From Candidatus Omnitrophota bacterium (GTDB lineage Bacteria > Omnitrophota > Gorgyraeia > Zapsychrales > Fredricksoniimonadaceae), in contig JBGAJA010000002.1 of NCBI GenBank assembly GCA_044225175.1, positions 82,917 to 146,916 of the forward strand: DNA of 64,000 bases, read 5' to 3'. A program made the position numbers and the translations under genes. Below, in pieces: positions 4,291-61,720 of this stretch (its first letter is position 1; the number at the start of each line of letters is the position of its first letter). The notes beneath the pieces are model-generated. The model was given only the letters and a program-made list of their open reading frames with translations, had not been told where the DNA came from and made no database searches.

Positions 4291-4632
4291 TTATCCAATG
4301 GCTTTTGAACCTTCTTCGCCGGTGCGGATGCGAATGGCACGAGGCAAATCAAGGACGAAAATCTTGCCGTCTCCGATTTTTCCTGTGCGCGCACCTTTGA
4401 TAATCGCCTTAATTGTAGGCTCCACGTAGTCGTCATTGACGGCTATTTCCACTTGGATTTTACGAAGAAGATTACCTGTTTCTTTGACCCCGCGATAAAA
4501 TTCATCAACACCAATTTGGCGGCCATGACCTAAGACTTCCAAGACAGTAATTAAACTCACTTGAGCTTCATATAATGCAGTTTTCACATCTTCGAGCCTG
4601 TGCGGCTGGATGATTGCGATGATTAATTTCAT
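4291..4632 (-). CDS. glnK: PII nitrogen regulatory protein (copy 1)
   Basis: 113 aa: [17 protein letters not shown]...[29 protein letters not shown]...[12 protein letters not shown]. The T-loop is conserved, a GGAGG Shine-Dalgarno is present, and it lies downstream of amt. Confidence 0.9.
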
Positions 4633-4652
4633 TTAAAATCCTCCGTATTATT

Positions 4653-4712
4653 CGTAGGGGCGACCCTTGCGGTCGCCTTATTATTGGGCAGGTGCTAGAC
4701 CTGCCCCTACGA
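4653..4712. repeat. Composite REP/BIME-like element (two hairpins, GTAGGGGCGACC..GGTCGCC and GGGCAGG..CCTGCCCCTAC) in the amt1-glnK1 spacer
   Basis: Direct reading. Outer arms CGTAGGGG / CCCCTACG, and internal hairpins gcgacc-cttgc-ggtcgc and gggcagg-tgctaga-cctgccc. Confidence 0.7.
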
Positions 4713-4716
4713 TTAT

Positions 4717-5955
4717 TTAATCCAAAATCGTATATGCACGTTCATGGTGTTGTGTTAAATCTAATCCCATGATTTCATCTTCGGCGCTCACGCGCATACG
4801 AATGATCTTATCGGTCACGAAGCAAATAATCCATGTCATCACGCCACAATACAAAACAGCAACGACGGCACATTTTAATTGGATAAAGAATTGCTGCGGA
4901 TTACCCAGAAACATGCCATCTGCTCCAGCAGGATTAACTGCTTTGGTGCCGATTAATCCAATGGCTAATACTCCCCAAAATCCACTCACTCCATGAACAC
5001 CAAAAGCATCTAGCGTGTCGTCGAATTTAAATTTCTGTTTAAATGAGCTGATTGCAAAGAAACTTAAAAGACTTGCTCCTGCACCAACAATCAAAGCTCC
5101 TTGAAAATCAACAAACCCGCAAGAAGGGGTGATTGCAACTAACCCTGCAACTGCTCCTGAAATGGATCCGTACATCGTTGGTTTTCCGGATAAAGCCCAT
5201 TCTAATATGGCCCACACCACAACAGCTGCACTCGCTGCAGCATTTGTTGTAATAAAAGCATTCACCGCAACGCCATTGGCTCCTAAAGCAGAGCCCGCAT
5301 TAAATCCTAACCATCCAAACCACAGCAAACATCCTCCCATGACAACCATAGGAATATTATGCAGACTTGGTTTTGAAACTCCAATTCTCTTGCCTAAGTA
5401 AATGGCTGTAATCAACCCTGCAACTCCACAATTGATTTCAATGACAGTTCCTCCCGCAAAATCCAAAAGGCCCCAGCCACGAAATAAACCGCCTGTCCCC
5501 CAAGCCATATGAGCCATAGGACAATACACAAAAGTAAGCCATAGCACTGTGAACAATAAGAATGCAGAGAATTTAACACGTTCCGCATAAGAACCCACAA
5601 TAATGGCAGGAGTAATAACCGCAAACATGCATTGGAAGATCATAAATGCACTATGTGGAATAGTTGCGGAATAATCGGGGTTGGCATCTGCTCCAACTCC
5701 TTTAAGCATTAACCAATCAAATCCTCCAAAGAGCCAATTGCCTGTTGAAAAAGCCAAACTATACCCATACATACCCCATATAATACTAATCACAGCCAAG
5801 CAGGCCATGCACTGCATCAAAATACCTAGAACGTTTTTACGACGAACCATTCCTCCATAAAAGAACCCTAACGCGGGCGTCATAAGTAACACCAAAGCAG
5901 CTGACACTAACACCCATGCCGTATCCCCGGCACTGATTTGATTGACTGAATCCAT
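4717..5955 (-). CDS. amt: Ammonium transporter (Amt family), copy 1
   Basis: 412 aa polytopic membrane protein: MDSVNQISAGDTAWVLVSAALVLLMTPALGFFYGGMVRRKN. Confidence 0.9.
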   Translation of the reverse strand: MDSVNQISAGDTAWVLVSAALVLLMTPALGFFYGGMVRRKNVLGILMQCMACLAVISIIWGMYGYSLAFSTGNWLFGGFDWLMLKGVGADANPDYSATIPHSAFMIFQCMFAVITPAIIVGSYAERVKFSAFLLFTVLWLTFVYCPMAHMAWGTGGLFRGWGLLDFAGGTVIEINCGVAGLITAIYLGKRIGVSKPSLHNIPMVVMGGCLLWFGWLGFNAGSALGANGVAVNAFITTNAAASAAVVVWAILEWALSGKPTMYGSISGAVAGLVAITPSCGFVDFQGALIVGAGASLLSFFAISSFKQKFKFDDTLDAFGVHGVSGFWGVLAIGLIGTKAVNPAGADGMFLGNPQQFFIQLKCAVVAVLYCGVMTWIICFVTDKIIRMRVSAEDEIMGLDLTQHHERAYTILD

Positions 5956-6193: not shown

Positions 6194-6535
6194 TTATCCG
6201 ATTGCTTTAGAACCTTCTTCACCAGTACGGATACGAATCGCACGAGGAAGATCCAAGATAAAGATCTTTCCATCGCCGATTTTTCCTGTACGAGCACCTT
6301 TGATAATGGCTTTGATCGTTGGTTCCACATAATCTTCGTTCACTGCAATTTCAATTTGGATCTTACGAAGAAGATTACCTGTTTCTTTGACTCCGCGATA
6401 AAATTCATCGACTCCAACTTGACGGCCATGGCCCAGAACTTCCATAACTGTAATTAAGTTTACATCTGCCGCGTATAGCTCTTTTTTAACATCTTCGAGT
6501 CTATGGGGCTGTATGATTGCAATCACTAATTTCAT
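6194..6535 (-). CDS. glnK: PII nitrogen regulatory protein (copy 2)
   Basis: 113 aa, about 85% identical to copy 1. Confidence 0.9.
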   Translation of the reverse strand: MKLVIAIIQPHRLEDVKKELYAADVNLITVMEVLGHGRQVGVDEFYRGVKETGNLLRKIQIEIAVNEDYVEPTIKAIIKGARTGKIGDGKIFILDLPRAIRIRTGEEGSKAIG

Positions 6536-6564
6536 TTAAAATCCTCCTTGATTTATATATTGAT

Positions 6565-6593
6565 GTACGGGCACCGCATGCCGTGCCCCTACG
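6565..6593. repeat. REP element GTACGGGCACCGCATGCCGTGCCCCTACG in the amt2-glnK2 spacer
   Basis: Palindrome gggcacggcatgccgtgccc flanked by GTAC/CTAC. It is the same family as the copy at 23398. Confidence 0.75.
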
Positions 6594-7844
6594 TTAATCT
6601 AAAATCGTATACGCACGTTCATGATGTTGTGTTAAATCAAGACCCATGACTTCATCTTCTTGAGATACACGAAGACCCATGACTTTATCAATTGCAAAAC
6701 AGATAATCCAAGTGGCGATTGCGGTGTAACCAATTGTGACTGAGCAAGCCACGAATTGATTCCACAATTGAGCCCCATTACCTAATAAAAGACCATCTGC
6801 ACCAGCACCATTGACTAACTTGGTTGCAAAGATACCTGTTGCCAAAGCACCCCATAACCCGCCGATACCATGGATACCGAAAGCATCGAGTGTGTCATCA
6901 TAACCAAACTTCGGTTTTACATAAGCAACCATGCAATAGCAGAAGATGCTAACTAAGAAACCAATCCATAAAGAACCACCGATGTCGACGAAACCGCAAG
7001 CAGGAGTAATTGCAACCAACCCTGCAACTGCACCGGAGACGACACCAACCATTGTTGGTTTTCCTGCAAAGATCCATTCCATCAAAGCCCAGCTAAGTGC
7101 AGCAGCAGCTGTGGCTGTGTTGGTTGTGACAAATGCATGAGCTGCTAAACCACTTGCACCTAAAGCAGAACCTGCATTGAAACCAAACCATCCAAACCAG
7201 AGTAAAGCAGCACCAATCACAATAAAAGGAACATTGTGCATACCTGGCTTTTCGGTATGACCAATACGCTTACCTAAATATAAGGCTGTAACCAAACCTG
7301 CAATACCTGCGTTGATATGAACAACAGTACCGCCAGCAAAGTCTAAGGCGCCTAAACCACGTAAGAACCCGCCAACACCCCAAACCATGTGTGCAATTGG
7401 GCAATAGACTAAAAGCAACCATAATGCGGTAAAAACTAAGAATGCAGAAAACTTCATACGTTCAGCAAAGGATCCAATAATGAGCGCTGGTGTAATGACC
7501 GCAAACATACATTGGAAGATCATAAAAGCCAAATGAGGAATGGTCGCTGCATAATCAGCGTTAGCATCTTGTCCAACACCTTTAAGCATAAACCAATCTA
7601 AACCACCCATAAAGGCGCTTCCCTTACCAAATGCTAAACTGTAACCTATTACCACCCATAAAATACTCACCAAAGCCAAGCACACAAAACATTGCATAAA
7701 AACACCTAAGATGTTCTTACGTCTAACCATACCTCCGTAAAATAAAGCGAGTGCTGGAACTGTCATCAACAAAACTAGTGCAGTTGATGCCAATACCCAT
7801 GCCGTGTCCCCGGCATTGATTGGATTTACTATTGTTGTATCCAT
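6594..7844 (-). CDS. amt: Ammonium transporter (Amt family), copy 2
   Basis: 416 aa, paralogous to amt1. Confidence 0.9.
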   Translation of the reverse strand: MDTTIVNPINAGDTAWVLASTALVLLMTVPALALFYGGMVRRKNILGVFMQCFVCLALVSILWVVIGYSLAFGKGSAFMGGLDWFMLKGVGQDANADYAATIPHLAFMIFQCMFAVITPALIIGSFAERMKFSAFLVFTALWLLLVYCPIAHMVWGVGGFLRGLGALDFAGGTVVHINAGIAGLVTALYLGKRIGHTEKPGMHNVPFIVIGAALLWFGWFGFNAGSALGASGLAAHAFVTTNTATAAAALSWALMEWIFAGKPTMVGVVSGAVAGLVAITPACGFVDIGGSLWIGFLVSIFCYCMVAYVKPKFGYDDTLDAFGIHGIGGLWGALATGIFATKLVNGAGADGLLLGNGAQLWNQFVACSVTIGYTAIATWIICFAIDKVMGLRVSQEDEVMGLDLTQHHERAYTILD

Positions 7845-8097: not shown

Positions 8098-11000
8098 TCA
8101 GATCTTAGCCAATTGCTCTTGTTCTCGTCCAGGATTTGTAGAATTATCCTTCAATCCTAACAGAGGTCTCATTTGCATAATGTTCAGCGGTGTTATCTGA
8201 ATGATCACAGGTTCAGCTGAGAATATGCCTTGAACTTTAATACGTGCAATCATGGCTGGATCGAAATTCACTTTAACCTCACCGTTAACATCTTTCATCA
8301 CACTCATGCCCATGTTGGCACTGTTTAAATCAATACCACCGGGAGAAGAACTGTGGGCTGAATCTGTGGTTAATCCTTTATTTATTGAGGCATCGGTGGA
8401 TCTAGCTCCTTGACCAGCAAAACTTTTGGACATGGCGAAATCGGAAAACCGTTCAACCATACTATCAATAGACTTACCATTCACATTTTTAATGGTATCT
8501 ATTTCATTTCGGAACCTATTGGCTAATTCGTAAGCTGTTAAATCAGTGGGGAAATTCCTTATATAACTTATTATTTTTCCATCCTCTTTTTTTTCTATAA
8601 TTAATTTTCTTTGATTACTTCCCAAATCTTCAGCTTTAACCATCCAACCTTTCTTAGAAAGCATATTTGCTGATACTCTAACTCTGACTACTTTTTTACT
8701 CCTAGCCCTCGCTGCATTAACAGCTGGCTTAGCTGCCATGGCGGAGTCATATGGTCGGGGGAAACGGTTGTTAACAAGATCACAAAGAGTAGTCACCGTC
8801 CATGGTTTATCAAAAATATTATCCCTCTCTTGATCTGAGAACTCCGTAATGGATAATTCTCTCTGTATTGTTGAAAACAACCCAAATTCTTTGTTATATC
8901 TATTTTTTCCTAAATTAACCGAAGGAGTATCGCTGTCCTTAAGGGAACCCTTTGCTAATCCAAATTGTCTTTCTATAATTTCAATAACTTTTTGTTTTCG
9001 TCCTTTGTTCTGAATGTCATATTTTATGAATCTAATCCATTTTCCTAGTTGATCTTGATTATACGATTGCACTCCAATACTATCTGTATTGTTTTCATCT
9101 GCCTTAAGTAGATGTCTTCCTTCAAAATATTCATTTTTTATTGCTTCATAAATTTCTTTGTCTTCTGGAAACAATCTTGACAAGACGAGAATTTCAACAA
9201 AATTAGTATTACGACTCGAATTTTCTAAAAAACTGCCATAAAACTCATCGATAAAACGGATAACACGATCATATTCAAATTCTTTCCCATTCTTAAACTT
9301 AATCTTCACCTCCATCGCTGCGTCGTTAGATGCGATGGCCGCATCGGAGAATTTCTTTGGCTGACTGGCTATCATGGCTAGATGAGGTAAGGCTGCTTTC
9401 ATATCATTAACTTTAGCGATCATTGCCTCGCTCACATCAGGTCTCCAGCGATCGTCTCTTGCAGTAGTATCAATATGATTAGGAAGAGAAGCGGCTAAAG
9501 CTGCCAATTTTGCAATTTCAAGCGGTGCAAATCTTTGGTCTATTCTCAAGGGAAGGTATCCTCTATCAGCACCAAAGCGCTCGGAGAAGTTTGATTCTAC
9601 AATCAACATCACCGTAGGGTTTTCATATGTATAAGCAAAAGGTTCCCATTGGTCTATTTCTTCTTTAAAACTGTCTGGCATAATTACAAAAAGAGTGGCT
9701 GGTTCATACGCAGATAAAGCCCGACGATAATAAAATCCTTTAGCAACGGTTTTTGTGATCGAGCCTCCTCTGACCGTCTGTTGTGCTGTTAATTGCAAAT
9801 TCAATTGATCTCTAAAAGAAACTGTTGCTTCTTGAGGTCCAAAAACTATTCTAAAGCCTCGTGGACTACCATCACTCCATATAAGATTCCCATGCTCATC
9901 TTGTGAATACCCTTGATTGGATTGGTTAAAATGCAACATCGCTGAGTCGGAAGATTTGACTGCTATGGCCCGTTGTGGATTAAAAGCACCATTAATATTT
10001 AAGGCTGTTGTGATACGTTGGAACGAAGAGCCTGTGGGGGTAGCCACAGTGGCTGCATCCATTAAATTGTGCGATACACTAAGCATTGCTTCATTAGGCC
10101 CTTGGTATCCCCCTGAGAAGTATTTTCGTGGAATTCTTTGACCCGTAAGCTTGCCCTGAGCGTCAGTCAAAGGGTCTTCTTTGATATAGTTGAATACACC
10201 CTTCTTATATGCCTGAAGATACTGCTGGTAGATTTGTTCTTTTACAGATGGATCAGAAAGGTTGACGCCTTTAATTGTATTTTTATTGGAATAGACCTGA
10301 TTAATAAGCGCTTCTTTAAGGTTCTTTTTGTACCATATAGCCAGAATCTGGGAATTGAAGATTTGGCGTAATGTGGCGAAGTTTTTGCCGGTGTTGACTT
10401 CTTTTTCGATTTCAGGAATGACGATGTCTCGAATGATTTGGCTGCTGATGACGTTGGGGGTATTTCCCTGGGTTGCTTTCACATTCAACGCTGTCTCGCT
10501 TGGCAACCTGCTTGGGGACACGTTCTGGTTGTTCTTGTTAGGAACATGTCCCCTGGTTGGCATTTGGTTTTTATCTCTGGCTAGATAATCTTCCTCCAAC
10601 ATCACCTTCAAATGCCCATCTACAACAAAGGCTGTTTGTCCATGTTCATATACACTGGCTTTATCGGCTAGAATCCACACCTTATTAAAGGTGTTAACTG
10701 GTATCTGAGCATTGGGACCGTAGATTGCTTGGGCTTTGGCATAGACTCTGTTCCAAAACTCTTTTCCTAGGTCTTTCTCTGGATAGATCAAAGATGCGGT
10801 TAACTGTTTGAGGATGTAGTCTTGGGCTAAAAGATCTCTGCCTAAGGCTGTTTGGCCTAAGGCTTCAGGAACTATACGGTCTTTTTCATAGGGGCTTAGG
10901 TTCACCCATAGGTCTTTCTCTGGAACGGTTAGGCAGGCGAAGAAATATTTAACCAAACGGTCGCCTTCTTGATGTAGAGACGCAAGATCTTGCGTCTCTA

Positions 11001-11235
11001 CAGATAGGCCGGAATTCCCGGTATCTACGATAAAATCAAATAAAAATGGATTATCTTTATGAACAGTTAAACCTTTGATTAAGGTTGGTTCAAAGGCTGG
11101 GCTTAAATTGACCATGGTTCCAGGAATAGGTAGAGACGCAAGATTTTGCGTCTCTACTGCATGTGATTTAGGAATAATAATTGATGTGCATGAAAAGGTA
11201 AGAATAACCAGGGAAGCAGTAACCTTCTTAAACAT
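8098..11235 (-). CDS. Giant secreted protein B (1045 aa), a paralog of the 1848-aa protein. It has a signal peptide. Its N-terminal domain of about 330 aa and a short C-terminal module (GGIDxxS...) are shared with A. Function unknown.
   Basis: Long ORF. N-terminus ...CLTVPEKDLWVNLSPYEKDRIVPE...NTFNKVWILADKASVYEHGQTAFVVDGHLKVMLEEDY aligns with protein A. Signal peptide MFKKVTASLVILTFSCTSIIIPKSHA. Confidence 0.75.
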   Translation of the reverse strand: MFKKVTASLVILTFSCTSIIIPKSHAVETQNLASLPIPGTMVNLSPAFEPTLIKGLTVHKDNPFLFDFIVDTGNSGLSVETQDLASLHQEGDRLVKYFFACLTVPEKDLWVNLSPYEKDRIVPEALGQTALGRDLLAQDYILKQLTASLIYPEKDLGKEFWNRVYAKAQAIYGPNAQIPVNTFNKVWILADKASVYEHGQTAFVVDGHLKVMLEEDYLARDKNQMPTRGHVPNKNNQNVSPSRLPSETALNVKATQGNTPNVISSQIIRDIVIPEIEKEVNTGKNFATLRQIFNSQILAIWYKKNLKEALINQVYSNKNTIKGVNLSDPSVKEQIYQQYLQAYKKGVFNYIKEDPLTDAQGKLTGQRIPRKYFSGGYQGPNEAMLSVSHNLMDAATVATPTGSSFQRITTALNINGAFNPQRAIAVKSSDSAMLHFNQSNQGYSQDEHGNLIWSDGSPRGFRIVFGPQEATVSFRDQLNLQLTAQQTVRGGSITKTVAKGFYYRRALSAYEPATLFVIMPDSFKEEIDQWEPFAYTYENPTVMLIVESNFSERFGADRGYLPLRIDQRFAPLEIAKLAALAASLPNHIDTTARDDRWRPDVSEAMIAKVNDMKAALPHLAMIASQPKKFSDAAIASNDAAMEVKIKFKNGKEFEYDRVIRFIDEFYGSFLENSSRNTNFVEILVLSRLFPEDKEIYEAIKNEYFEGRHLLKADENNTDSIGVQSYNQDQLGKWIRFIKYDIQNKGRKQKVIEIIERQFGLAKGSLKDSDTPSVNLGKNRYNKEFGLFSTIQRELSITEFSDQERDNIFDKPWTVTTLCDLVNNRFPRPYDSAMAAKPAVNAARARSKKVVRVRVSANMLSKKGWMVKAEDLGSNQRKLIIEKKEDGKIISYIRNFPTDLTAYELANRFRNEIDTIKNVNGKSIDSMVERFSDFAMSKSFAGQGARSTDASINKGLTTDSAHSSSPGGIDLNSANMGMSVMKDVNGEVKVNFDPAMIARIKVQGIFSAEPVIIQITPLNIMQMRPLLGLKDNSTNPGREQEQLAKI
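10974..11001. repeat. 28-nt perfect palindrome GTAGAGACGCAAGATCTTGCGTCTCTAC embedded in frame in gene B, encoding VETQDLASL
   Basis: Direct reading. Codons gta gag acg caa gat ctt gcg tct cta fall in the gene B frame. Confidence 0.8.
11130..11157. repeat. Second copy (27/28 identical) of the GTAGAGACGCAAGAT(T/C)TTGCGTCTCTAC palindrome, in frame in gene B. It encodes VETQNLASL at residues 27-35, immediately after the predicted signal-peptide cleavage site SHA.
   Basis: Direct reading. Residue V27 maps to 11155-11157. Confidence 0.8.
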
Positions 11236-11670: not shown

Positions 11671-14600
11671 CTATTCCGCCAATAATGTGTGGATCATGCT
11701 TTGAGAAACAGGTACAACCATTACAACTTCAGGCGTTATTCCATAGATGGATTGTATTGAAAAAGGCTCTATGCTAGGTTGATTAGTCCCTTGCTCTTGA
11801 AGATCTAATAAATGACTGTCCATATCAATGCCCCCTTTAATCTCAGAGAGGCCTTTAACAGGATTTGCGGTCATCATAGCCTGGTCTGAAGGAGATTTTC
11901 CAATCTCTTCAACCTTTGCAACCGTTTGAGGGTCAATCCCAATAGGTGAACGGGTAGTGTGAACGGAAATACTAGGATATGTCCAGGCCCGGTTCCAAAG
12001 GTGAATATCTTGAGGCTTAATACTCATCTTAAAAAGACCCAAATTGATCGTGAACTCAGGAAATATGGAAATGGTACTGGCCTTTTTATACATGGCATTA
12101 AACATCACCTTGTAAGCCATTAAACGGCCCAAAGGATCAAAAGCAAGGTTATTCATTTTCTTAATCACCTCACTATCCGTCGCATTTAATATCTGGCCTT
12201 GAATGTTGATGTGGTGATCTGTAATATTTTTATCTGAAAAATCCTCTCGGCCGATCGTAGTCACCTCTGCACCAGATACCAAACGATTGCCAAAAATACC
12301 ATTTCTAACCGCCTTAGCCTGTCTCAGAGTGACTTTAACAGCCTCTTTGGCCATTTGATCAACAGGAAGAGCACTAATAAGTTGTAGACCTCTGACAATG
12401 CGATGCGTAAATCTGGCTCCCAAATGATCTTCGGGGTTTCCTCCATGAACATTCATCGTCATGGAACCAGGCGCACGGGCCCCCATTTTGCTGACAAACG
12501 CAGTACTAATCTGATGCACAAAAGGAAGGTCTCCAATGACCATACTAGGAGGCCCCATTCTCGCCCATCGAGGCCTGCCGGTAAAGGTACGATAAATAAG
12601 TGTCGTAATTAAAAAAGGCGCCCACACCGCAACCATAAAGTCTGCTGTGGTTGCCCAAAAACCACTCATACTGCGAAGCGCAGGACCAGGGGGACATCCT
12701 AACGCATTCATGGCTAAATGAACTGGAGCTCCCATATAAAAAATACTAGCGACAAATGCTCTGAAGATAAAATTAACTTTAGGGGTTTCCAATAAATGTC
12801 CCCCGAGATACTGTCCATGATTAATTAGTTCTTGATGAACCTTGCTCTTAATGTCCCTGCCTTGCTCATCAACTCCTGTTATTCTTTTGGAATCTTTGAT
12901 CATTCCCTGAATCATGTCCTCGAGCCTTTTGAGATCGCTTTCTTGAACTTGTAAACCCCAAGGATTGTGATGAGGAAAAACTTCTCTTAATCGTTTAACC
13001 AAATGCCGTGTTAATAAAATCTGCTCTGCAAATAAAAGAATGTCTGAAGTAGGAGCTGCTTCTGCTGGATAGTAATCTCCCGTCGTAAAAATACGCCTTG
13101 TAAAAGGAGCATCCGGAGTTAATCTTTGCCCTAAAGCCATGTTGATCATGGCATCCAGACGAGAGGTCATCACAAATGTGTTGCCTTGAGTAATCTTATT
13201 TAAAAGTCCTGCTAAGGCCATGCTTGGAAATGTAGATCCGGAAAGAGATATGATTAAGCCGATTGTCCTATTGTTTATTTTAGATAGAGGGTCACGCAAT
13301 TTTTTATTAGAAGAGTTGGTTTCAATAGGCATTTTGGGCATAAAAATATGCAGTAATTGCTTAAAATTTTCACCTAACCACAAAGATTTTTCATAACCAC
13401 TAATATCTAAAACGGTGTTGTTGGAATCGTCCTTATTATTTAGTGTTTTTTGTTTTTGACGCAAACTTGAGATAGAACGATCAAAGTTAGCTATTAAATC
13501 ATCTAGAATTATTTTAATCTGAAGTTCGGTAAAAACCTGAAGCTCATGGTCCATTTGTTCAGCATGCTTTATAAGATCTTCATCTTTGATCTGTCTTGAT
13601 AGCAGCTTCTTATTTAAATCTTCTGCATAAGAAATAATGAAATTACTCGCCTGACTTTCAATGATGGCCACGATCAATGAGTTTTCCCAAGAAATGGAAT
13701 CTTGGTGCAAAAATTTCTTTTGATCTTCTGAACAAACCACTTGGCCTGATTCACAATCCTGTAAAAATTTGTGGATTCGCCTGACTACATCTGCACGCAA
13801 CAAAGAATACGTGAGGCTGTGTTTCTTTAAGAAATCTTCCACGTAACGAGAGGATGCCATTTCAGCAAAGGCTTCTGCAGATTGATAGTCAAAAGACCGT
13901 GGATTTTCCCAGTCCTTAACTTTGGTAGAGATGGCGTTGGATGTTCTTTCTAAATCTTCATCGATAATGTTTTGAGGATCTTTATATTCAATAGGGGGCT
14001 TGTAGTATGGATTATCTTCATTTAAAGAATAAAGCCGTTGTGAAATTTGTTCTGGGGTCAGATCTTTATTGCCGGAAGAACGCACCCTCACATAAAAGGC
14101 CTTTGTCTTTGAAAAACCAATGTCTGCAACCTCATCCTTTCTGGGATCTAACATAAATAACTTCTCTAAAGAACCTTTACTGCCAAATTTTCCCAATAAA
14201 ACCAAAGGGTCTGAGGCAAAGCTCAAAAACTTCTTCATTACATTAAAGCCAAACGCCATGCCTTGGGATTTTGAAAAAAGAGTCACTCCGTCATTTTGTA
14301 AAGAAGTCCTGACAACTAGCCCATAAGATCCTTCAGCTCTTTCTTTAAAATCCAAAGTGGCTTGAAAACGATTGCCAATAAAAAACCTTTCAACGGCCAT
14401 GTCCACAAATCGAATTCTAGTCTCTTGGCTTTGATTCCACCGACGTAAAATTTCTCCAGCTGGGGTTTGTTTTGAACCCTCTGCTTCTAAGCGTTTCACT
14501 AACTTTTCTTTAAACGCATTGATCTTGTGGTATTGAAACTTCAAATCCGGCCATTGATTAGCCATGTCTTTGCTTACCCACAAATCTTTAAATTCTTTAT

Positions 14601-17217
14601 TAGCCCCCAGATCAGGTCGCGAGAGCCCTGGGGCATCTTGGATAAAGATTTCTTCGAAGAGTTGCGCCATAGCATCTTCTTCTTCGATGTTTAGAATATC
14701 CCCCAAGGCTTCATCTGCTGTTTTATGATTGACCATGACATGGGCGTATCGAATCGATCCCCGCCAGCTGCCTTGAGTTAAATGAAAATGGATTTCTGGA
14801 GCCGTAGGTGGTGAGTCGCCCTCAGGCATATAGTCATAGCGCCCCTGGGTGCCCCTTTCTGGATCAGGAGGAATCCATACATCTTTCTTCATATGAACGA
14901 CTTTGCCAAAGAACTCTCGAATCTCTGTAAGATCAAGCATTCTGTCATGCAAATAATAATAATCATTGTCTCCGTTATGAGAGGTAGTGACCAAAACTTC
15001 TTTCTTATGGACCACCAGTTTTCCATCGCTAATTGCCCATTGAAGTCTTTCTTCTTTAGGACCTAAGAAAGGATGTGAGGCCCTTTTGCTGACAGCCCCT
15101 CCCGTGGCAAAACGCACATGACCATTGACTCCATGAACCATGACTTCACTATCAGCTGAATGCTTTGCTCCCTTGATGTCTTGTCTGAATTCACTGAGCA
15201 AGGAGCTTACTAAATCACTGCCTGCACCTCGTTTACTTTTAACGACCTTGGTCAAATAAACATTGGCTTCTCCATTAGAACCATCAATCATCACCTGTCC
15301 GGCCGACTGACCGCCTCTCACAATCAGACGCCTCATAAGCCCATCTACTCCCTCCTGCACCCATTGGGGATAAAGCCCTTGATTGGATTCATCAACCCAG
15401 AACACTCCATAATTGCCGCATTCGAATTTATCTGAATCAACAGGGAGTTTTTTAATGTCGGATTTCCATGAGGCCTTGATGGCATTCCATCCTGACACAC
15501 CGATAGGGCCTAAAAGAGGTAAAACCCAGGAATGTTCAAGCCCAAGAAAATAAGCGCTAATAGCTGTAGCGACTGTGGTAAGCCACGTTGCAGCGAATCC
15601 TGTATAATGGATGGTTTTTTTCCTCCAACCTTCACTGGAAAAAAGAACATAAGGGTTTTCTTTAGGTATTTGCCTCCAGGGTAATATTATTTGCAACCAT
15701 TGATTGAGACTGAAATTTGCTTTCAAATTATTAACACTTAAAGCTTCTTTCGATCGATGAGGATGGAATACGGCAGAGGACACAGCATGACCACCGACCT
15801 CATGAACCCCTATATTTAAGGCATATAATGCGCGTGTAATAAATGGCAAGGCAACCGCAGTCGTTATTAAACTCACTGGGTCCCATCCAACTGTACTAGT
15901 TGCTATGACCATGCCGCTACTCCAGCCTAAAAAATCCATCGATCTTGAGTATGTGGTCGCGGACTTTTGAGCAAAGTCTCTTTCTTTTCCTCCGACCAAA
16001 CGAGGAATAGAATTTCTAACTTCTCCTTCTATTAGCTTGAATGGATGCTTATTCGTCAAAGTTCTTTGATCAGGAAAACGCACAATGGAACCATGTTCAT
16101 CTGTAGCATTCAAATCGATAGTGGCCATGGCCAAATCACTGCCTAAGTCCATCCCTTGAGAATTCTCTATTTCACTGTAAACATGTTTGGTTTGAAGGCC
16201 GAATCCTATAAAATCCATCCCTCCTGATGCATATTTACGAGGAATAACTGTTTGATTTGAAGAATCATAATCTTCACGGATATAGTTATAAACCAGCTTT
16301 TTATATGCCTTCAGGTACTGTAAGAAAATCTTTTCTTTAATGTTCTTATCTTGAGCATCCACCCCTGTGATTTTATTTTTTCCAACATACTCTTGAGATA
16401 ACACGCTGCTTTTTAAATGTTTCTTGTACCATGTTGCTAAAATCATGGCATTGAAGACTTGGCGAACGACCGCAAAATTCTTTCCCTCATTGATTTCCCG
16501 CCTTAGTTCAGGAAGAATAATTTCTCGGACGATTTGGGCGTATTTTTCCGTAGGGGCAGGCCCCTGCCCGATATTTTTATCCATCGACACATAATCGTAT
16601 TCCAACATCACATCCAATTTGCTATCCACAACAAAAGCACTATCTCCCTTCACATAAACCTTGGCTGTTTTAGGGACGATCCAAACTTTATTAAAGGTAT
16701 TAATAGAAACATTGGTTGTGCCATAGATTTCTTGAGCCTTTAGATATATTTTTTGCCAAAACTTTCGGCCTAATTCATTTTCGGGGTAACTTAAAGAAGC
16801 CATGATTTGTTTAAGTAGATAGTCTTGTTCTAAAAGACTTTTCCCCATTTCCGTTCTACCAAAGTATTCAGGTGCAATGCGGTCCTTTTCATAGGGCGAA
16901 AGATTGACCCATAGATCACTTTCGGGAACTGTTAAGCAAGTAAGGAAATATTTGGTGAGTGTGGTAATTGCATCTTTTAAAGCTTGCCCTCTAAGGCCAG
17001 AAGCTCCTTCATCAATTAAGAAATCAAAACGCAAAGCATTATTCGTGTTGGTCTTAATCCCTTTTAATACCAAGGGTTTAAAAGAGGGGCTTGTAGAAAT
17101 CATCATCCCAGGAACAGGAAGATGAGGCATAGATTGAGCATGAGCATCCGGTAAAGGACCTAAGGAAGTAAGAAAAAATGCAAGAATGAGGATCTGAATA
17201 AGAATTTTCTTGATCAT
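11671..17217 (-). CDS. Giant protein A (about 1848 aa from ATG 17217; the ORF track uses an upstream TTG). It has a signal peptide, the shared N-terminal domain, several hydrophobic TM segments, an embedded class II (Ntn) glutamine-amidotransferase-like domain (residues about 604-760) and the shared C-terminal module. Function unknown.
   Basis: ...KFECGNYGVFWVDESNQG...RRLIVRGGQSAGQVMIDG...HGVNGHVRFATGGAVSKRASHPF...VTTSHNGDNDYYYLHDRM matches the GlmS/PurF/AsnB N-terminal motifs (CGIVG, RRLEYRGYDSAG, HTRWATHG..AHPH, VHNGIIENY). TM-like stretches include FIFRAFVASIFYMGAPVHLAMNALG and AVWAPFLITTLIY. Confidence 0.8.
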   Translation of the reverse strand: MIKKILIQILILAFFLTSLGPLPDAHAQSMPHLPVPGMMISTSPSFKPLVLKGIKTNTNNALRFDFLIDEGASGLRGQALKDAITTLTKYFLTCLTVPESDLWVNLSPYEKDRIAPEYFGRTEMGKSLLEQDYLLKQIMASLSYPENELGRKFWQKIYLKAQEIYGTTNVSINTFNKVWIVPKTAKVYVKGDSAFVVDSKLDVMLEYDYVSMDKNIGQGPAPTEKYAQIVREIILPELRREINEGKNFAVVRQVFNAMILATWYKKHLKSSVLSQEYVGKNKITGVDAQDKNIKEKIFLQYLKAYKKLVYNYIREDYDSSNQTVIPRKYASGGMDFIGFGLQTKHVYSEIENSQGMDLGSDLAMATIDLNATDEHGSIVRFPDQRTLTNKHPFKLIEGEVRNSIPRLVGGKERDFAQKSATTYSRSMDFLGWSSGMVIATSTVGWDPVSLITTAVALPFITRALYALNIGVHEVGGHAVSSAVFHPHRSKEALSVNNLKANFSLNQWLQIILPWRQIPKENPYVLFSSEGWRKKTIHYTGFAATWLTTVATAISAYFLGLEHSWVLPLLGPIGVSGWNAIKASWKSDIKKLPVDSDKFECGNYGVFWVDESNQGLYPQWVQEGVDGLMRRLIVRGGQSAGQVMIDGSNGEANVYLTKVVKSKRGAGSDLVSSLLSEFRQDIKGAKHSADSEVMVHGVNGHVRFATGGAVSKRASHPFLGPKEERLQWAISDGKLVVHKKEVLVTTSHNGDNDYYYLHDRMLDLTEIREFFGKVVHMKKDVWIPPDPERGTQGRYDYMPEGDSPPTAPEIHFHLTQGSWRGSIRYAHVMVNHKTADEALGDILNIEEEDAMAQLFEEIFIQDAPGLSRPDLGANKEFKDLWVSKDMANQWPDLKFQYHKINAFKEKLVKRLEAEGSKQTPAGEILRRWNQSQETRIRFVDMAVERFFIGNRFQATLDFKERAEGSYGLVVRTSLQNDGVTLFSKSQGMAFGFNVMKKFLSFASDPLVLLGKFGSKGSLEKLFMLDPRKDEVADIGFSKTKAFYVRVRSSGNKDLTPEQISQRLYSLNEDNPYYKPPIEYKDPQNIIDEDLERTSNAISTKVKDWENPRSFDYQSAEAFAEMASSRYVEDFLKKHSLTYSLLRADVVRRIHKFLQDCESGQVVCSEDQKKFLHQDSISWENSLIVAIIESQASNFIISYAEDLNKKLLSRQIKDEDLIKHAEQMDHELQVFTELQIKIILDDLIANFDRSISSLRQKQKTLNNKDDSNNTVLDISGYEKSLWLGENFKQLLHIFMPKMPIETNSSNKKLRDPLSKINNRTIGLIISLSGSTFPSMALAGLLNKITQGNTFVMTSRLDAMINMALGQRLTPDAPFTRRIFTTGDYYPAEAAPTSDILLFAEQILLTRHLVKRLREVFPHHNPWGLQVQESDLKRLEDMIQGMIKDSKRITGVDEQGRDIKSKVHQELINHGQYLGGHLLETPKVNFIFRAFVASIFYMGAPVHLAMNALGCPPGPALRSMSGFWATTADFMVAVWAPFLITTLIYRTFTGRPRWARMGPPSMVIGDLPFVHQISTAFVSKMGARAPGSMTMNVHGGNPEDHLGARFTHRIVRGLQLISALPVDQMAKEAVKVTLRQAKAVRNGIFGNRLVSGAEVTTIGREDFSDKNITDHHINIQGQILNATDSEVIKKMNNLAFDPLGRLMAYKVMFNAMYKKASTISIFPEFTINLGLFKMSIKPQDIHLWNRAWTYPSISVHTTRSPIGIDPQTVAKVEEIGKSPSDQAMMTANPVKGLSEIKGGIDMDSHLLDLQEQGTNQPSIEPFSIQSIYGITPEVVMVVPVSQSMIHTLLAE
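16548..16570. repeat. REP-family sequence (GGGCAGG-cc-CCTGCCCCTACGG on the coding strand) embedded in frame in gene A, encoding GQGPAPTE, in a region that differs from paralog B
   Basis: Direct reading. It has the same CCTGCCCCTAC half as the intergenic REP at 4690-4712. Confidence 0.6.
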
Positions 17218-17231
17218 AATGGCTTTCAAAT

Positions 17232-23397: not shown

Positions 23398-23429
23398 CCC
23401 GTAGGGGGCACGGCATGCCGTGCCCGTAC
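23398..23429. repeat. REP element CCCGTAGGGGGCACGGCATGCCGTGCCCGTAC in the nuoM-nuoN spacer
   Basis: Same family as the copy at 6565, in the opposite orientation. Confidence 0.75.
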
Positions 23430-23447
23430 TGTACAGAAAGAATACAC

Positions 23448-24893
23448 ATGTTCCCCGTCATCGATTGGAATTTATTTTCTTTAGAAGCTTTAATCACAAG
23501 CATCCTTGTTGGCTTAGTGATTATTGAAATGTTCCTGCCTAAGGATGAACGCCAGGATGTCATTGGCATCTTAAGTGTGATCAGCACCGTCGGACTACTT
23601 GCCTTTTGGTTGACCCAACAAAATTTAGCTGGTATCACATTCAGCGGCATGTTTGTGATGGATTCATTGGCCTGGTTCTTTAAGGCTTTCTTCTTAGTTG
23701 CCATGATTTTTATCTTTGGCATGACACAGCATTTCTTTAAATCTTTAGATGGCAGACGCAATGAATTCTATTTGCTACTGTGGCTGGCTTTGCTGGGTAT
23801 GTGCTTGGTGGCCTCATCCGCAGACTTCCTGATGGTGTTTATCTCTATTGAGATTCTAACGATTTCTTTGTATGTCATGACTGCCTATTTGAAAAGCGAC
23901 AAGCTTTCGATTGAAGCTGGGATGAAATATTTGATTTTAGGTGCCCTTTCTTCAGGTTTTTTACTTTATGGTATTAGCTTCTTATACGGGGCAACCCAGT
24001 CAACCAACTTCCTTACCATCCTAAATTACGTTCAAACACATGCCATGAATCCCATGATGCTCTTTGGTTTAGTGCTTGTCTTTGCAGGGGTTGGTTTTAA
24101 GATTGCAGCGGTCCCCTTTCATATGTGGGCCCCCGATGTTTATCAAGGCGCTCCAGCTCCGGTTACTGCCTTATTGTCGGTGGGATCTAAAGCTGCAGGA
24201 TTTGTGATTTTGATTCGTTTATTCTTCGGTATCTTAGAGCCCTGGCATCCTCAATGGAGCATGGTCTTAGCTGTTTTAGCGGCTATCAGCATGACATACG
24301 GCAACCTGGTCGCCATGTTTCAAACCAATATCAAACGTGTCTTTGGTTATTCAAGTATTGCGCATGCCGGATATCTATTAATGGGTGCTGCGGCAGGAAG
24401 CGCGCTCGGTGCAACCGCCATGAATTACTATTTGCTGGGATATTTATTTACAAATCTTGCTGCATTTACCGTGATCGTTATATTCTTTGTGGCAACCAAA
24501 TCTGATGAAATTGATGACTATGCCGGACTTGCCAAACGCTCCGCCATCTTAGGAACAACACTACTTTTAGCACTCGTTTCTTTGGCTGGCATTCCACCCT
24601 TAGCAGGCTTCTTCGGTAAATTCACATTACTCATGGCAACTGTCCAAGCCGGTTTCGTCTGGTTAGCCCTAGTTGCCGCGGTCAATATCGTCATTTCCCT
24701 CTACTACTACATGACAATCGCCAAACGCATGTACGTCGATGCACCAAAAACTAACACCCCCATCATCGTCTCTCCCATGATGCGTATCCTATTAATCCTC
24801 GCCATGACCGGAATCATAGTCATCGGCATCTTCCAAGGCCCCTTCACCGACGCCGCCCTTACTGCAGTCCAAGGAATGTACCTGCACCCTTAA
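23448..24893 (+). CDS. nuoN: NADH-quinone oxidoreductase subunit N
   Basis: MFPVIDWNLFSLEALITSILVGLVIIEMF.... The ORF-track start at 23415 falls inside the REP. Confidence 0.85.
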   Translation: MFPVIDWNLFSLEALITSILVGLVIIEMFLPKDERQDVIGILSVISTVGLLAFWLTQQNLAGITFSGMFVMDSLAWFFKAFFLVAMIFIFGMTQHFFKSLDGRRNEFYLLLWLALLGMCLVASSADFLMVFISIEILTISLYVMTAYLKSDKLSIEAGMKYLILGALSSGFLLYGISFLYGATQSTNFLTILNYVQTHAMNPMMLFGLVLVFAGVGFKIAAVPFHMWAPDVYQGAPAPVTALLSVGSKAAGFVILIRLFFGILEPWHPQWSMVLAVLAAISMTYGNLVAMFQTNIKRVFGYSSIAHAGYLLMGAAAGSALGATAMNYYLLGYLFTNLAAFTVIVIFFVATKSDEIDDYAGLAKRSAILGTTLLLALVSLAGIPPLAGFFGKFTLLMATVQAGFVWLALVAAVNIVISLYYYMTIAKRMYVDAPKTNTPIIVSPMMRILLILAMTGIIVIGIFQGPFTDAALTAVQGMYLHP

Positions 24894-24910: not shown

Positions 24911-24942
24911 TTGGGTTTGATGAATCAAACCCCTACGGATTT
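24911..24942. repeat. Hairpin GGGTTTGA-TGAA-TCAAACCC plus CTACGGATTT that overlaps the stop codon of the RAYT gene. A 30/32 copy lies inside the RAYT CDS at 25197-25228.
   Basis: Direct reading. The last codons of the RAYT gene (aat ccg tag) are part of the element. Confidence 0.7.
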
Positions 24943-25466
24943 ACATTATTTGGATCTGTTTCCCACATTTGAGGATTATTAATAATGTATTGCCGTATCT
25001 GCATTAATTCTTTTTCATGACGAATGATATGTTCATAATAATTACGTTGCCATGCAAATGTGCTATTTTTAGCGTGAATTAATTTTGTGGTTTTCGCCTT
25101 AAAATGTCTAATAATTTTCCCTAACGAAACATCGTGTTGTTGCATCAATCGCCATGATTCCGTAGGGGCATGATTTATCATGCCCTTATGAATGTCTTGG
25201 GTTTGATGAATCAAAACTCTACGGATTTCAATAATTCCATGAATATGATTTGGCATAACTACAAACGTATCCATATAAATTGGATAATGTTTTGGTAATT
25301 GATCCCAAACTGATTGCACCATTTGGCCGGAATCATTTAAAATCATGCGCTCATTAATAATCTGACCAAATAAATGCATCCGGTAATTTACACATATGGT
25401 CAAAAAATAATAACCCGCAGATGAATAATCATATCCTTTCAAGCGTAATGAACTTCTTTTGGGCAT
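24933..25466 (-). mobile_element. REP-associated tyrosine transposase (RAYT; IS200/IS605 TnpA-like HuH Y1 transposase), single copy
   Basis: 177 aa with the HuH motif MPNHIHGII and the catalytic Tyr motif QRNYYEHIIR. REP-like palindromes with GTAG/CTAC ends are scattered through the window. Confidence 0.8.
25162..25185. repeat. REP-like palindrome GTAGGGGCATGA-tttat-CATGCCC inside the RAYT CDS, in frame, encoding ...GMINHAPTE...
   Basis: Direct reading. Together with the copy at 25197-25228 (encoding EIRRVLIHQTQ), it accounts for an insertion of about 20 aa between the HuH and Tyr motifs relative to typical RAYTs. Confidence 0.6.
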
Positions 25467-25516: not shown

Positions 25517-25541
25517 ATTTGTGACGCACTGCGTCACAAAT
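25517..25541. promoter_or_regulatory. Perfect palindrome ATTTGTGACGC-act-GCGTCACAAAT in the RAYT 5' leader (candidate operator or RNA hairpin)
   Basis: 11-bp arms, located between a candidate promoter and the RAYT ATG. Confidence 0.5.
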
Positions 25542-26555: not shown

Positions 26556-27110
26556 TCACAGACCTGTAAACTCTAGAACATACGGATCTTTGATCATATC
26601 TTGATAGGTATTTAATTCGTGTCCCTTCTGAGCCAATTTCATAATCCCTTTCTTATCTCTACTTAATGCAAGACGTTCAAAAAGAGAAGATCCTTTTTGG
26701 CGTTCTAGTTCCCGAGATGACCAATTATTCTTAATGCATTCAATCTCATAAAATGAACGTGCCTCTGGTCTATCAATGCACATAAGAATGCGATGATGAG
26801 TCCATGTCAATTCGAGACGCAGTGCGTCTCGAATTGGATAAATTAAATAGAATTGTCGAATCTTCCTTAAATTTGTTTCATCATACCCTTCTCCAAAGTC
26901 AATCTTCAAACGCATAGCTAACTTTTCGAGAAGATTCTTTCCATATTCTGCCCTGCCTTTTCCTTTCTGCTCTTCTTCAACAATCTCCTTCCCAATTTGC
27001 CAATAAGTTTGAACCATCTCACTATTCACCGAAAGCATGATGTTTGCGCGCGCATGTTCAATAATGTTGTGGATTCGATTATAAATATTCTTAGAAGCTG
27101 TTTTAGACAT
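26556..27110 (-). CDS. YhcG/DUF1016 family protein with the N-terminal domain only (184 aa; the PDDEXK nuclease half is missing, so possibly a truncated remnant)
   Basis: ...TYWQIGKEIVEEEQKGKGRAEYGKNLLEKLA...LTWTHHRILMCIDRPEARSFYEIECIKNNWSSRELERQKGSSLFERLALS...IKDPYVLEFTGL stops where full-length YhcG continues into the nuclease domain. Confidence 0.5.
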   Translation of the reverse strand: MSKTASKNIYNRIHNIIEHARANIMLSVNSEMVQTYWQIGKEIVEEEQKGKGRAEYGKNLLEKLAMRLKIDFGEGYDETNLRKIRQFYLIYPIRDALRLELTWTHHRILMCIDRPEARSFYEIECIKNNWSSRELERQKGSSLFERLALSRDKKGIMKLAQKGHELNTYQDMIKDPYVLEFTGL

Positions 27111-59655: not shown

Positions 59656-61680
59656 TTAACGACGGGTTGCTTTTAAATCTTTAATGAGAGCTTGAATAAT
59701 GCGCTCATAGCTGGAAGATACTTCCTCTTCTCGCAGGGTTTGTTTGTGACTTTGGTAAATCAAAGAGAAAACCAAAGATTTTTGATCAGGAGAAATTTTA
59801 TCACCCGTGTATTGCTCAATGAATTGAATACTTCTAAGAATATCTCCACCATTTTGACGACAAATAGTTTCAATCTCTTTGTATGATGTTTCTTTTCCAA
59901 TCGCTAAGGATACGTCACGCGTAACTGCGGGGAACTCAACTAACGGTTCATATTTAGTAGTCGTCTTAGGTAAACAGAGAATTTCTTCCAAATGAATACT
60001 GGCAAAATAGACGTCTTGATTCTTGATCTCCCAATTAGTCAGAATTTGTTTGTTCACTTTTCCCAAAAATCCGATTTCTTTTCCTTTAAAAAAAACACTG
60101 GATGAACAGGACTCTTCTAAAATATGTGATTGATTTGGCTTGATTTCGACATTCACATTTAAAGAACGACATACATTTTCAAGGACGCCCTTTAAATCGA
60201 AAATCTCTACATTTTCTTTTCGAGAAATACGCCAGTCTTCGCTTCGTCGACCGGTCATAATAATTGCCAGAGTTTCTTTCTCGCCATTTTTTGAGTATCT
60301 TTTACCTATTTCAAAAATCTTAAGATCCCTTTGTCCTCGGTTAAAATTAGTTAGAGTTACGTTTAAAAGCGAAGGCAAAAGGGATGGTCGTTTGAATTCT
60401 TGTTCCGTCGTCAGAGGATTGTAAACTCGAAGGGCCTTCACATCTTGGTACATGCATTTCTCAATGTCTTTTGCACTTAGCATAGATAAAGTCACCGCTT
60501 CATTTAAACCTGATGCCAGAAGTATTTGTCGAATTAGTTTCTTTAGCTTAATGGGCCTGTCGCTAATTGTGACGTTTTTTGCCTTAATATGAGGGAGGCT
60601 CGTGGGAAGACGATCAAACCCTATAATACGGGCAACTTCTTCAATCAAATCAACCGTTTCTTTGACATCTCCTCGGAAACTTGGAGGTGTGACCATCAAC
60701 ACATTTTTAGAAGAAGAAATCTTAAATTCTAGATTAACCAAAATCGTTTTAATTTGTGCTAAAGAAACTTTGTGACCCAAGAGACTTTCCACATCTTGGG
60801 ATGTTATTTTGATCGATTTAGAAGTACGCTTAGCACCATATGCTGCATCTGTGCGAAAAGCCAGATGACCATGGGTTAAATCCAACAATAGATCTGTAGC
60901 ACGGTTGGCTCCCATTAAAACGCCATCAAAATCCACATTACGTTCAAATCGATAAGAAGAATCGCTTCGAAGCCCTAATTTTCGAGAGGCACGTCGAATA
61001 AGAGTCATGTCAAAATGTGCACTTTCAAGAAGGATGTTCTTGGTAAGCTCTGTTACTTCTGTTTCTTTTCCTCCCATGAGCCCTGCAATCGCAATTGGTT
61101 TTCTTACATCTGCTATCACTAAAATCGTTGGATCTAATGTTCTTTCAATTCCATCAATCGTAATAATCTTCTCTCCTTGCTTGGCTCGACGCACGATGAC
61201 CCTTCCGCCTTCGATCTTATCGTAATCAAATACATGCAAAGGTTGACCCGTTTCCATCAACACAAAATTGGTAATATCGACAGCATTGCTGATGGATGTA
61301 ATTCCCAAAGCATTGATGCGTTCTTGAATAGGTTGAGGTGAGTATGTGATGTTAGTATTAGTAATTAGTGTTGCGATATAACGACTGCAGTCTTTCTTAT
61401 CTTCAATGGAGATAGAAATCTTATTCTTAGTTGGCTTATGTGCTTTAATCTTTGGGGAGTTCACCTTGCGTGAACTAATTGCACCTATCTCACGAGCAAG
61501 TCCTAAAATATTTAAACAGTCGGGTCTATTAGGGGTAATTTCAAGTTCAAAGACAGTGTCTTTTCCATGAAGTTCCACACCCTCAACTTCCCATCCTGCC
61601 ATGACGAGACGAGTAGTTAAATCGTCTGTCGATAGCTTTGGGTCAATATAATCTTTTAACCAATTGAGGGATAATTTCAT
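59656..61680 (-). CDS. pheT: Phenylalanyl-tRNA synthetase beta subunit
   Basis: MKLSLNWLKDYID.... The ORF-track start at 61704 lies inside a REP. Confidence 0.85.
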   Translation of the reverse strand: MKLSLNWLKDYIDPKLSTDDLTTRLVMAGWEVEGVELHGKDTVFELEITPNRPDCLNILGLAREIGAISSRKVNSPKIKAHKPTKNKISISIEDKKDCSRYIATLITNTNITYSPQPIQERINALGITSISNAVDITNFVLMETGQPLHVFDYDKIEGGRVIVRRAKQGEKIITIDGIERTLDPTILVIADVRKPIAIAGLMGGKETEVTELTKNILLESAHFDMTLIRRASRKLGLRSDSSYRFERNVDFDGVLMGANRATDLLLDLTHGHLAFRTDAAYGAKRTSKSIKITSQDVESLLGHKVSLAQIKTILVNLEFKISSSKNVLMVTPPSFRGDVKETVDLIEEVARIIGFDRLPTSLPHIKAKNVTISDRPIKLKKLIRQILLASGLNEAVTLSMLSAKDIEKCMYQDVKALRVYNPLTTEQEFKRPSLLPSLLNVTLTNFNRGQRDLKIFEIGKRYSKNGEKETLAIIMTGRRSEDWRISRKENVEIFDLKGVLENVCRSLNVNVEIKPNQSHILEESCSSSVFFKGKEIGFLGKVNKQILTNWEIKNQDVYFASIHLEEILCLPKTTTKYEPLVEFPAVTRDVSLAIGKETSYKEIETICRQNGGDILRSIQFIEQYTGDKISPDQKSLVFSLIYQSHKQTLREEEVSSSYERIIQALIKDLKATRR

Positions 61681-61690
61681 ATAAATTATT

Positions 61691-61720
61691 GTAGAGGCGG
61701 ACACATAGGTCCTCCCCTAC
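61691..61720. repeat. Imperfect REP (GTAGAGGCGGAC-acat-AGGTCCTCCCCTAC) in the pheS-pheT spacer
   Basis: Direct reading; 10/12 arm matches. Confidence 0.6.

Follow-up and report, generated by a model that had tools for sequence, protein, structure and literature searches.

Among the REP-associated tyrosine transposases (RAYTs, or TnpA_REP), subclass 2.4 of Quentin, Siguier, Chandler and Fichant (2018, BMC Genomics 19:475, PMC6006769) is characterized by the motifs NH[IFV]H, WQ and YIxNNP, by medians of 194 residues for length and 88 residues for the distance from the HuH motif to the catalytic tyrosine, by repetitive extragenic palindromes (REPs) of the 'long' and 'double foot' kinds and, as its 'unique feature', by REPs within the tnpA_REP gene itself, in the HuH–Y interval and with the reading frame kept. 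The resulting insert was modelled there as a peripheral extension of the beta3/alphaC loop. The subclass is the same as RAYT group 4 of Bertels, Gallie and Rainey (2017), which was reported as common in Cyanobacteria, Chlorobia and Caldilineae and as having flanking 16-mers that are only moderately abundant (14 occurrences). An additional 8 residues where helix alphaB ends are a further characteristic of the subclass. REPs of the GTAG/CGTC type also occur in frame in many other genes, where intragenic dimers encode 20-30 residues that are presumed to be loops or linkers (Di Nocera, De Gregorio and Rocco, 2013, BMC Genomics 14:522, PMC3733652). The locus described here lies in a stretch of 64,000 nucleotides (hereafter the window) from a Candidatus Omnitrophota bacterium (assembly GCA_044225175.1, contig JBGAJA010000002.1, positions 82,917 to 146,916). 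It contains a gene that is very probably a RAYT of TnpA_REP subclass 2.4 with an in-frame REP dimer in a disordered loop (Table 1).

The assignment to RAYTs was evident from domain, structure and residue comparisons. Thus, the protein matched Pfam Y1_Tnp (E 1.9e-7) over its N-terminal half only and also matched NCBIfam REP_Tyr_transpos. An AlphaFold2 model made with 34 homologues as input had a mean predicted local distance difference test (pLDDT) value of 80 and a core above 90, and its best match in the PDB by Foldseek was 4er8_A (E 3.9e-7, TM 0.58/0.61), which is the E. coli TnpA_REP with a bound REP hairpin. In the sequence alignment to 4ER8, residues W139, Q140, E145, H146 and R149 corresponded to W94, Q95, E100, H101 and R104, which contact GTAG according to PMC6006769, while Y160 corresponded to the catalytic Y115. 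This alignment places YYEH (residues 143-146) in the foot-recognition segment and identifies YIINNP (160-165) as the tyrosine motif. The first-pass annotation of this DNA, made from its letters and a list of open reading frames (ORFs), had recognized the gene as a HuH RAYT with HIH and YYEH motifs, and in this it was correct, HIH being at residues 74-76 and WQR at 139-141, but its use of YYEH as the tyrosine motif did not stand.

In the same comparisons, little was found in favor of an ordinary IS200/IS605 transposase from an active insertion sequence, for which the hairpins would be subterminal ends. This is a very unlikely explanation, although the Pfam match is to the generic Y1_Tnp only and the moderate abundance of group 4 flanking 16-mers noted above would fit it. 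Thus, the IS200 equivalog model NF033573 (transpos_IS200) scored 16.8 bits on the protein as opposed to a cut-off of 55, and the IS608 and ISDra2 transposases ranked under 4er8_A in the list of structural matches. One copy of the gene was found in the window by tblastn, and the adjoining ORFs were NuoN and a Sir2-family gene rather than tnpB. In addition, the hairpins have the GTAG foot and are dispersed without the gene, and two RAYT homologues from different assemblies (L086 and L211, below) occupy one locus.

Agreement of the gene with subclass 2.4 extended to each of the features tested, i.e., NHIH at residues 73-76, W139-Q140, YIINNP, an enlarged distance of 86 residues from H74 to Y160, REPs in frame, no C-terminal extension (the protein stops 12 residues past YIINNP) and a canonical REP within 1000 nt, on the 3' side. 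The comparison with described RAYT classes that the first-pass annotation proposed thus leads to this subclass, and the observation is therefore of a class feature that is already published. REPs inside the gene have been a known hallmark of the subclass since 2018 and are not special to the gene in the window.

Three palindromic elements had been claimed to overlap the ORF, and all three were located at or near the positions given for them. The hairpin at the 3' end (parts GGGTTTGATGAATCAAACCC at 24913-24932 and CCCCTAC at 24930-24936) lies over the stop codon, as claimed; the stop reads CTA on the forward strand and TAG on the reverse strand, so that it coincides with the TAG in the GTAG foot of a REP on the minus strand. 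Together, the two internal hairpins make up one inverted REP dimer, in which they are the arms, with the feet outward and a 13-nt spacer, and the dimer as a whole has an outer inverted repeat (TCCGTAG...CTACGGA, 25159-25225). The right arm is the REP said to encode GMINHAPTE, and the left arm is the internal copy of the 3' hairpin said to have a disrupted stem. Positions 25197-25228 and 24911-24942 were indeed identical at 30 of 32 nucleotides, and the extended segments 25197-25236 and 24911-24950 at 35 of 40. When folded as single-stranded DNA, the right internal REP gave -8.5 kcal/mol (z -5.1), the 3' REP -7.3 kcal/mol (z -3.9) and the whole internal dimer -14 kcal/mol (z -4.7), while the left internal REP gave -1.7 kcal/mol (z -1.0). 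The weak folding of the latter is due to its foot and stem base, which read GTAGAGT instead of GTAGGGG and thereby leave out two of the three basal G-C pairs; judged by its sequence, this degraded REP would probably serve poorly as a substrate. The hairpins of the gene take the form of a GT[AG]G foot with a 3-bp G-C clamp, and their parts were more frequent in the window than expected. Thus, the 20-mer with at most three mismatches had 3 matches (0.02 expected), CCGTAGGGG had 4 (0.08 expected) and GTAGGGG had 12 (2.9 expected).

In-frame translation of the dimer gives 21 residues, in agreement with the insertion of about 20 residues between the HuH and tyrosine motifs that had been claimed. 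These residues fall in a loop, predicted to be disordered, between beta3, which carries the HuH motif, and alphaC. In the AlphaFold2 model, a strand at residues 74-81 that includes the HuH motif was followed by a low-confidence coil at 82-114 (pLDDT below 50 at residues 84-91 and 94-111) and a helix at 115-131.

The 3' REP and the left internal REP remain alike past the GTAG foot for approximately 14 nt (24937-24950 compared with 25223-25236, 11 of 14 identical, AAT.AT..AAATCC before GTAG). At L086, the 3' copy instead has the spacer-side flank CGAAATAAC in common with the internal copy. Such sequence likeness hints that the 3' REP may derive from a part of the internal element that was copied along with the flank.

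The palindrome upstream of the gene folded at -11.5 kcal/mol (z -5.9) and is possibly a degenerate 5' REP or an operator; a scan for promoters and terminators around the RAYT gene gave nothing that exceeded shuffle expectation. The core of this palindrome (25523-25535) is one of four copies of a GACGCA..TGCGTC family in the window, compared with 0.01 expected. The other copies are at 26816-26828, inside a DUF1016 gene (26556-27110), and at 10979-10996 and 11135-11152; two of the four have GTAG feet. An identical RAYT protein is encoded on two Logan contigs of 1.1-1.3 kb each, L001 (SRR28480381) and L002 (SRR28480388), which start 116-130 nt upstream of the RAYT start codon. These starts may be assembly breaks at repeats near the upstream palindrome.

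Several results weigh against assignment of the gene as a RAYT with its own REPs. The protein scored 61.8 bits with NCBIfam REP_Tyr_transpos, in two stretches, and so fell short of the cut-off of 80; the insert, which breaks the match in two, is the probable cause. No canonical GTAG-footed REP was found 5' of the gene, only the footless palindrome, and the two hairpins of the gene had no further copy in the 64 kb beyond the gene and its edge. Furthermore, what can be said of RAYT activity and REP specificity is drawn by analogy from the enzymes of E. coli and group 3. The first two of these results, together with the degraded left internal REP, are also those expected of a decaying, inactive RAYT remnant that was broken by REP insertion. 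A remnant is nevertheless unlikely, as the reading frame is uninterrupted, none of the catalytic and GTAG-contact residues is missing, the core of the AlphaFold2 model is predicted with confidence and the same in-frame architecture is seen in thousands of homologues.

A protein search identified thousands of RAYT relatives of 168-251 residues, and the best locus among the genome matches listed encoded a protein 47% identical to that of the window. Residues W139, Q140, R141, Y160, I161 and N164 were invariant in the homologue alignment. In contrast, the segment from HIHGII to LGKIIRxFKA was highly variable in length among 34 aligned homologues, with recurring words such as RRGLIHQT...GMINHAPT, VGAQFIAPN...GAINRAPT, VGAIHESPLQ, VGANNHSPLQ and GLINQTPT. 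Homologues thus share the extra segment, and the segment does bear a palindromic DNA signature, an outcome in favor of the first-pass annotation, which would have been refuted by an extra segment that lacks the signature. The latter was evident from a search for GT[AG]G-footed hairpins at 75 homologous loci from species-representative genomes, in which the density of such hairpins was 13.0/kb in the beta3/alphaC loop as opposed to 0.32/kb in the rest of the RAYT gene, 2.64/kb in the 300-nt flanks and 0.38/kb beyond the flanks, far from the gene. At least one footed hairpin was present in the loop at 61 of these loci, and the 117 internal hairpins comprised 76 distinct sequences. Loop 12-mers were found again outside the gene of their own locus 1293 times, at 49 loci, whereas control segments from the same genes gave 31 and 313 hits and loop 12-mers compared with a different locus gave 85.

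The type of REP followed the RAYT subclade, and all eight of the closest homologues have the two hairpins of the window RAYT; the internal REPs are therefore presumably cognate to the RAYT that contains them. A homologue with the same hairpins, P0006, comes from an Omnitrophota metagenome-assembled genome. PheT from the window (59656-61704) had homologues at 55-64% identity, and every one of these that carries a name belongs to Candidatus Omnitrophota. Two others with the same internal hairpins, from two different metagenome assemblies (L086 10001-10666 and L211 3001-3621), occupy the same site, downstream of the genes for IMPDH and GMP synthase, which suggests vertical inheritance in that lineage. 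Frame usage was restricted as well. Thus, feet on the coding strand were read only as GTA-GGG (VG) or xGT-AGG ([RC]RG) and never as G-TAG, the frame that would turn the foot into a TAG stop, while feet on the opposite strand were read as CCC-CTA (PL) or CC-CCT-AC (APT), which explains the 'nearly invariant' proline P101.

Constraint on the hairpins at the DNA level was noted when the window RAYT was compared with the coding sequences of the eight close homologues. The left hairpin GTAGGGGTTTGATTCATCAAACCC was present in seven of the eight (with C changed to T in the loop in L211), and L212 had one stem mismatch; the right hairpin GGC[A/G]TGAT..ATCA[T/C]GCCCCTAC was present in all eight, and the sequence between the hairpins differed in length by locus. 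Codon identity among the nine genes was 90.7% in the hairpins (87.6% at third positions) and 62.2% in the rest of the gene (47.1% at third positions). Similarly, where two genes encoded the same residue, the codons were identical for 90.9% of pairs in the hairpins as opposed to 55.1% elsewhere. A compensatory change of A:T to G:C at one base pair was found in L208 and L212, and the degraded left foot was seen in the window copy only, i.e., in one of the nine genes.

These data bear on whether the palindromes are simply a by-product of selection on the peptide RRGLIHQT...GMINHAPT and not REP DNA at all. The conservation of these words among the eight closest homologues and the near invariance of P101 would agree with selection of this kind. 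However, synonymous sites are conserved too, and the change of M..H to V..H is a change of ATG/CAT to GTG/CAC, i.e., of codons that are reverse complements of each other, as verified in the DNA; A..R and L..Q appear to be further reverse-complement pairs, judging from the peptides. The 'invariant' proline is CCCC read in two frames, APT and SPL, the same DNA is intergenic in hundreds of places and the segment that encodes the words is predicted to be disordered. The conserved-peptide explanation was rejected on the synonymous-site and frame evidence, and its likelihood is regarded as negligible.

Selection on the hairpins as cis-elements is a different matter and would refine the assignment rather than replace it. 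The RAYT might bind the hairpins of its own single-stranded DNA or mRNA and so sense its gene or limit its expression, or the internal REPs might be a protected master copy of the substrate through which REP and enzyme specificity remain linked. Alternatively, the dimer may be a passenger that the gene merely tolerates. Such a role is possible but tentative. It would account for third-position identity in the hairpins and the one compensatory pair, for a position that is fixed across phyla while the REP sequence changes and for the covariation of REP type with RAYT subclade. On the other hand, concerted evolution with dispersed REPs, through gene conversion or re-insertion, predicts the same pattern with no function needed. 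In approximately 14 of the 75 homologues, no footed hairpin could be detected in the loop, the left REP of the window gene is degraded, and in-frame REPs are present in unrelated genes of the window and known from other genomes (PMC3733652). The synonymous-site conservation of the hairpins thus fits either selection in the gene or homogenization with the dispersed REP population. If the conservation reflects function, the gene would be a rare instance in which a transposase gene contains the substrate of its enzyme for regulation or as a template, and the conserved internal REPs would offer a way to study how the specificities of RAYT and REP are kept in step.

By analogy with described enzymes, the protein would act as a single-domain HuH/Y1 endonuclease that binds folded REP hairpins on single-stranded DNA. 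It would read the 5' GTAG foot through W139, Q140, E145, H146 and R149 and would cut and rejoin the DNA via a covalent Tyr160 intermediate, with a metal ion held by H74 and H76. The internal REPs would have inserted into a loop in which any sequence is tolerated and which lies near the site of enzyme synthesis; proximity and tolerance together are the most likely explanation for insertion at this site. Only frames that avoid the TAG reading of the foot are seen, and the internal REPs would since have been held identical to the dispersed genomic REPs, either through selection that acts on the hairpin or through concerted evolution.

Dispersal of the REP was evident from the occurrence of the exact 24-mer GTAGGGGTTTGATTCATCAAACCC in at least 120 metagenome stretches; among the matches listed, 134 of 136 were in loci without a RAYT gene. 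Some copies stood alone, and others formed tandem arrays with close variants or inverted dimers with partners that have different stems.

Within the window, other REPs were located with a foot-plus-stem finder at approximately 8-9 sites. The first-pass annotation had listed several of these as REP variants that share GTAGGGG...CCCCTAC ends, and while such REPs are present, their stems are unlike those of the two RAYT hairpins and represent different REP species. No exact match to GTAGGGG N4-34 CCCCTAC was found in the window, the double-foot REPs there being imperfect or longer. Several of the stems have matches among the REPs that RAYT genes from other phyla contain, one being the GGGCACGGCATGCCGTGCCC core, which is present in Chloroflexi loci L022, L048 and L058. 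The enzymes for these other REPs are probably encoded by further RAYT genes at other places in the genome.

Table 1. Features of the RAYT locus and other REP sites, in coordinates of the window
Feature	Position	Strand	Remarks
RAYT / TnpA_REP gene	24933..25466	-	ORF, 177 aa + stop; subclass 2.4 signatures NHIH, WQ, YIINNP
HuH motif codons H74-I75-H76	25239..25247	-	Motif position; H74 and H76 invariant in homologue alignment
WQRNYYEHIIR, residues 139-149, predicted GTAG-foot recognition segment, including YYEH	25020..25052	-	4er8 alignment
YIINNP, residues 160-165, Y160 the predicted catalytic Tyr	24972..24989	-	phmmer alignment to 4er8
Internal inverted REP dimer (REPIN-like, 'double foot' + spacer), codons 82-102, RRVLIHQTQDIHKGMINHAPT	25159..25225	-	Inverted repeat
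Left internal REP GTAGAGTTTTGATTCATCAAACCC, two substitutions from GTAGGGG consensus in foot/stem base	25199..25222	-	
Right internal REP GTAGGGGCATGATTTATCATGCCC, intact	25162..25185	+	Coding strand reads GMINHAPT(E)
3' flanking REP GTAGGGGTTTGATTCATCAAACCC	24913..24936	-	GTAG foot supplies TAG stop codon 24933-24935
Perfect 12+12 palindrome ATTTGTGACGCAcTGCGTCACAAAT, no GTAG foot	25517..25541	.	51-75 nt upstream of RAYT start codon
Intergenic REP dimer, GCGACC...GGTCGC + GGGCAGG...CCTGCCC	4652-4712 (two hairpins at 4654-4710)		
GGGCACGGCATGCCGTGCCC-type REP copies	6569-6592 and 23401-23425		
REPs, GTAG-footed	10974-11001 and 11130-11157		
REP, GTAG-footed	16548-16570		
REP, GTAG-footed	61690-61720		
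PheT gene	59656-61704		

The intergenic dimer has the same architecture as the dimer inside the RAYT gene. It lies in one of two nearly identical 3' flanks (4600-4800 and 6480-6680) of paralogous ammonium-transporter genes (4717-5955 and 6594-7844), and at the same intergenic spot the other flank has a single GGGCACCGCATGCCGTGCCC palindrome (6569-6592). This pair of flanks is a natural case of REP turnover at one site. ORFs of 412 and 416 residues beside REPs were considered as TnpB-like and rejected, as they are the paralogous ammonium transporters. Another REP, CCGTAGGGGGCACGGCATGCCGTGCCCGTAC (23399-23430 region), covers the first ATG of the NuoN-like ORF 23415..24893, so that the N-terminus 'MPCPYCTE' is REP-encoded; the true start of this ORF is probably further downstream.

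Two large ORFs on the reverse strand also contain REPs in frame. Approximately 220 codons into an ORF of 1852 residues (11671..17229) with a signal-peptide-like N-terminus, the REP CCGTAGGGGCAGGCCCCTGCCC is read as NIGQGPAPTEKY, a peptide word of the type seen in RAYT loops. The double-foot palindrome GTAGAGACGCAAGATCTTGCGTCTCTAC occurs twice in the N-terminal region of an ORF of 1045 residues (8098..11235), where the copies are translated as VETQDLASL and VETQNLASL. Both copies are missing from the paralogous N-terminal region of the neighboring 1852-residue ORF, and they look like 27-nt in-frame REP insertions.

Compared with the E. coli TnpA_REP (YafM, 4ER8; subclass 2.2 or RAYT group 2), the window RAYT is alike in fold (TM approximately 0.6), in the alignment of the HuH, catalytic tyrosine and GTAG-contact residues and in its association with GTAG-footed REPs. 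The proteins are only 23% identical, however, and the E. coli enzyme has approximately 28-30 fewer residues between HuH and tyrosine, a coding sequence without a REP and REPs with bulged stems. With the intragenic REPs of Di Nocera et al., those of the window have in common that monomers and dimers are in frame, and the window holds further cases of this kind (16548-16570, 10974-11001 and 11130-11157). The former REPs are sporadic and in unrelated genes, whereas the gene entered here encodes the transposase of the REP itself, at a site that is filled throughout the subclass. The REPIN-RAYT systems of Pseudomonas and Enterobacteria (Bertels and Rainey, 2011) likewise have an inverted REP doublet plus spacer as a unit. 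Their RAYT is single-copy with cognate REPs in its flanks, to which the one gene copy in the window and its presumably cognate 3' REP may correspond. In these systems, both arms are derived from a single REP and the doublet is located outside the RAYT gene, as opposed to two arms with different stems inside the gene in the window.

The closest relationship is with subclass 2.4 itself, in motifs, in the absence of a C-terminal extension, in a HuH-to-tyrosine spacing of approximately 88 residues, in variable in-frame REPs of the beta3/alphaC loop, in 'long' REPs with three basal G-C pairs, in 'double foot' REPs and in occurrence across scattered phyla. The window gene differs in that it is short (177 residues compared with a median of 194), in that its canonical flanking REP is on the 3' side only and one internal REP is degraded, and in that Omnitrophota is not among the phyla named in the available part of PMC6006769 (Cyanobacteria, Bacteroidetes and 'various phyla'). 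The synonymous-site conservation and compensation across proteins that are approximately 50% identical, together with the frames restricted by TAG, may be an addition to what was described in 2018, within the available part of PMC6006769. Thus, the finding mostly confirms published work and adds what is apparently an Omnitrophota member to subclass 2.4.

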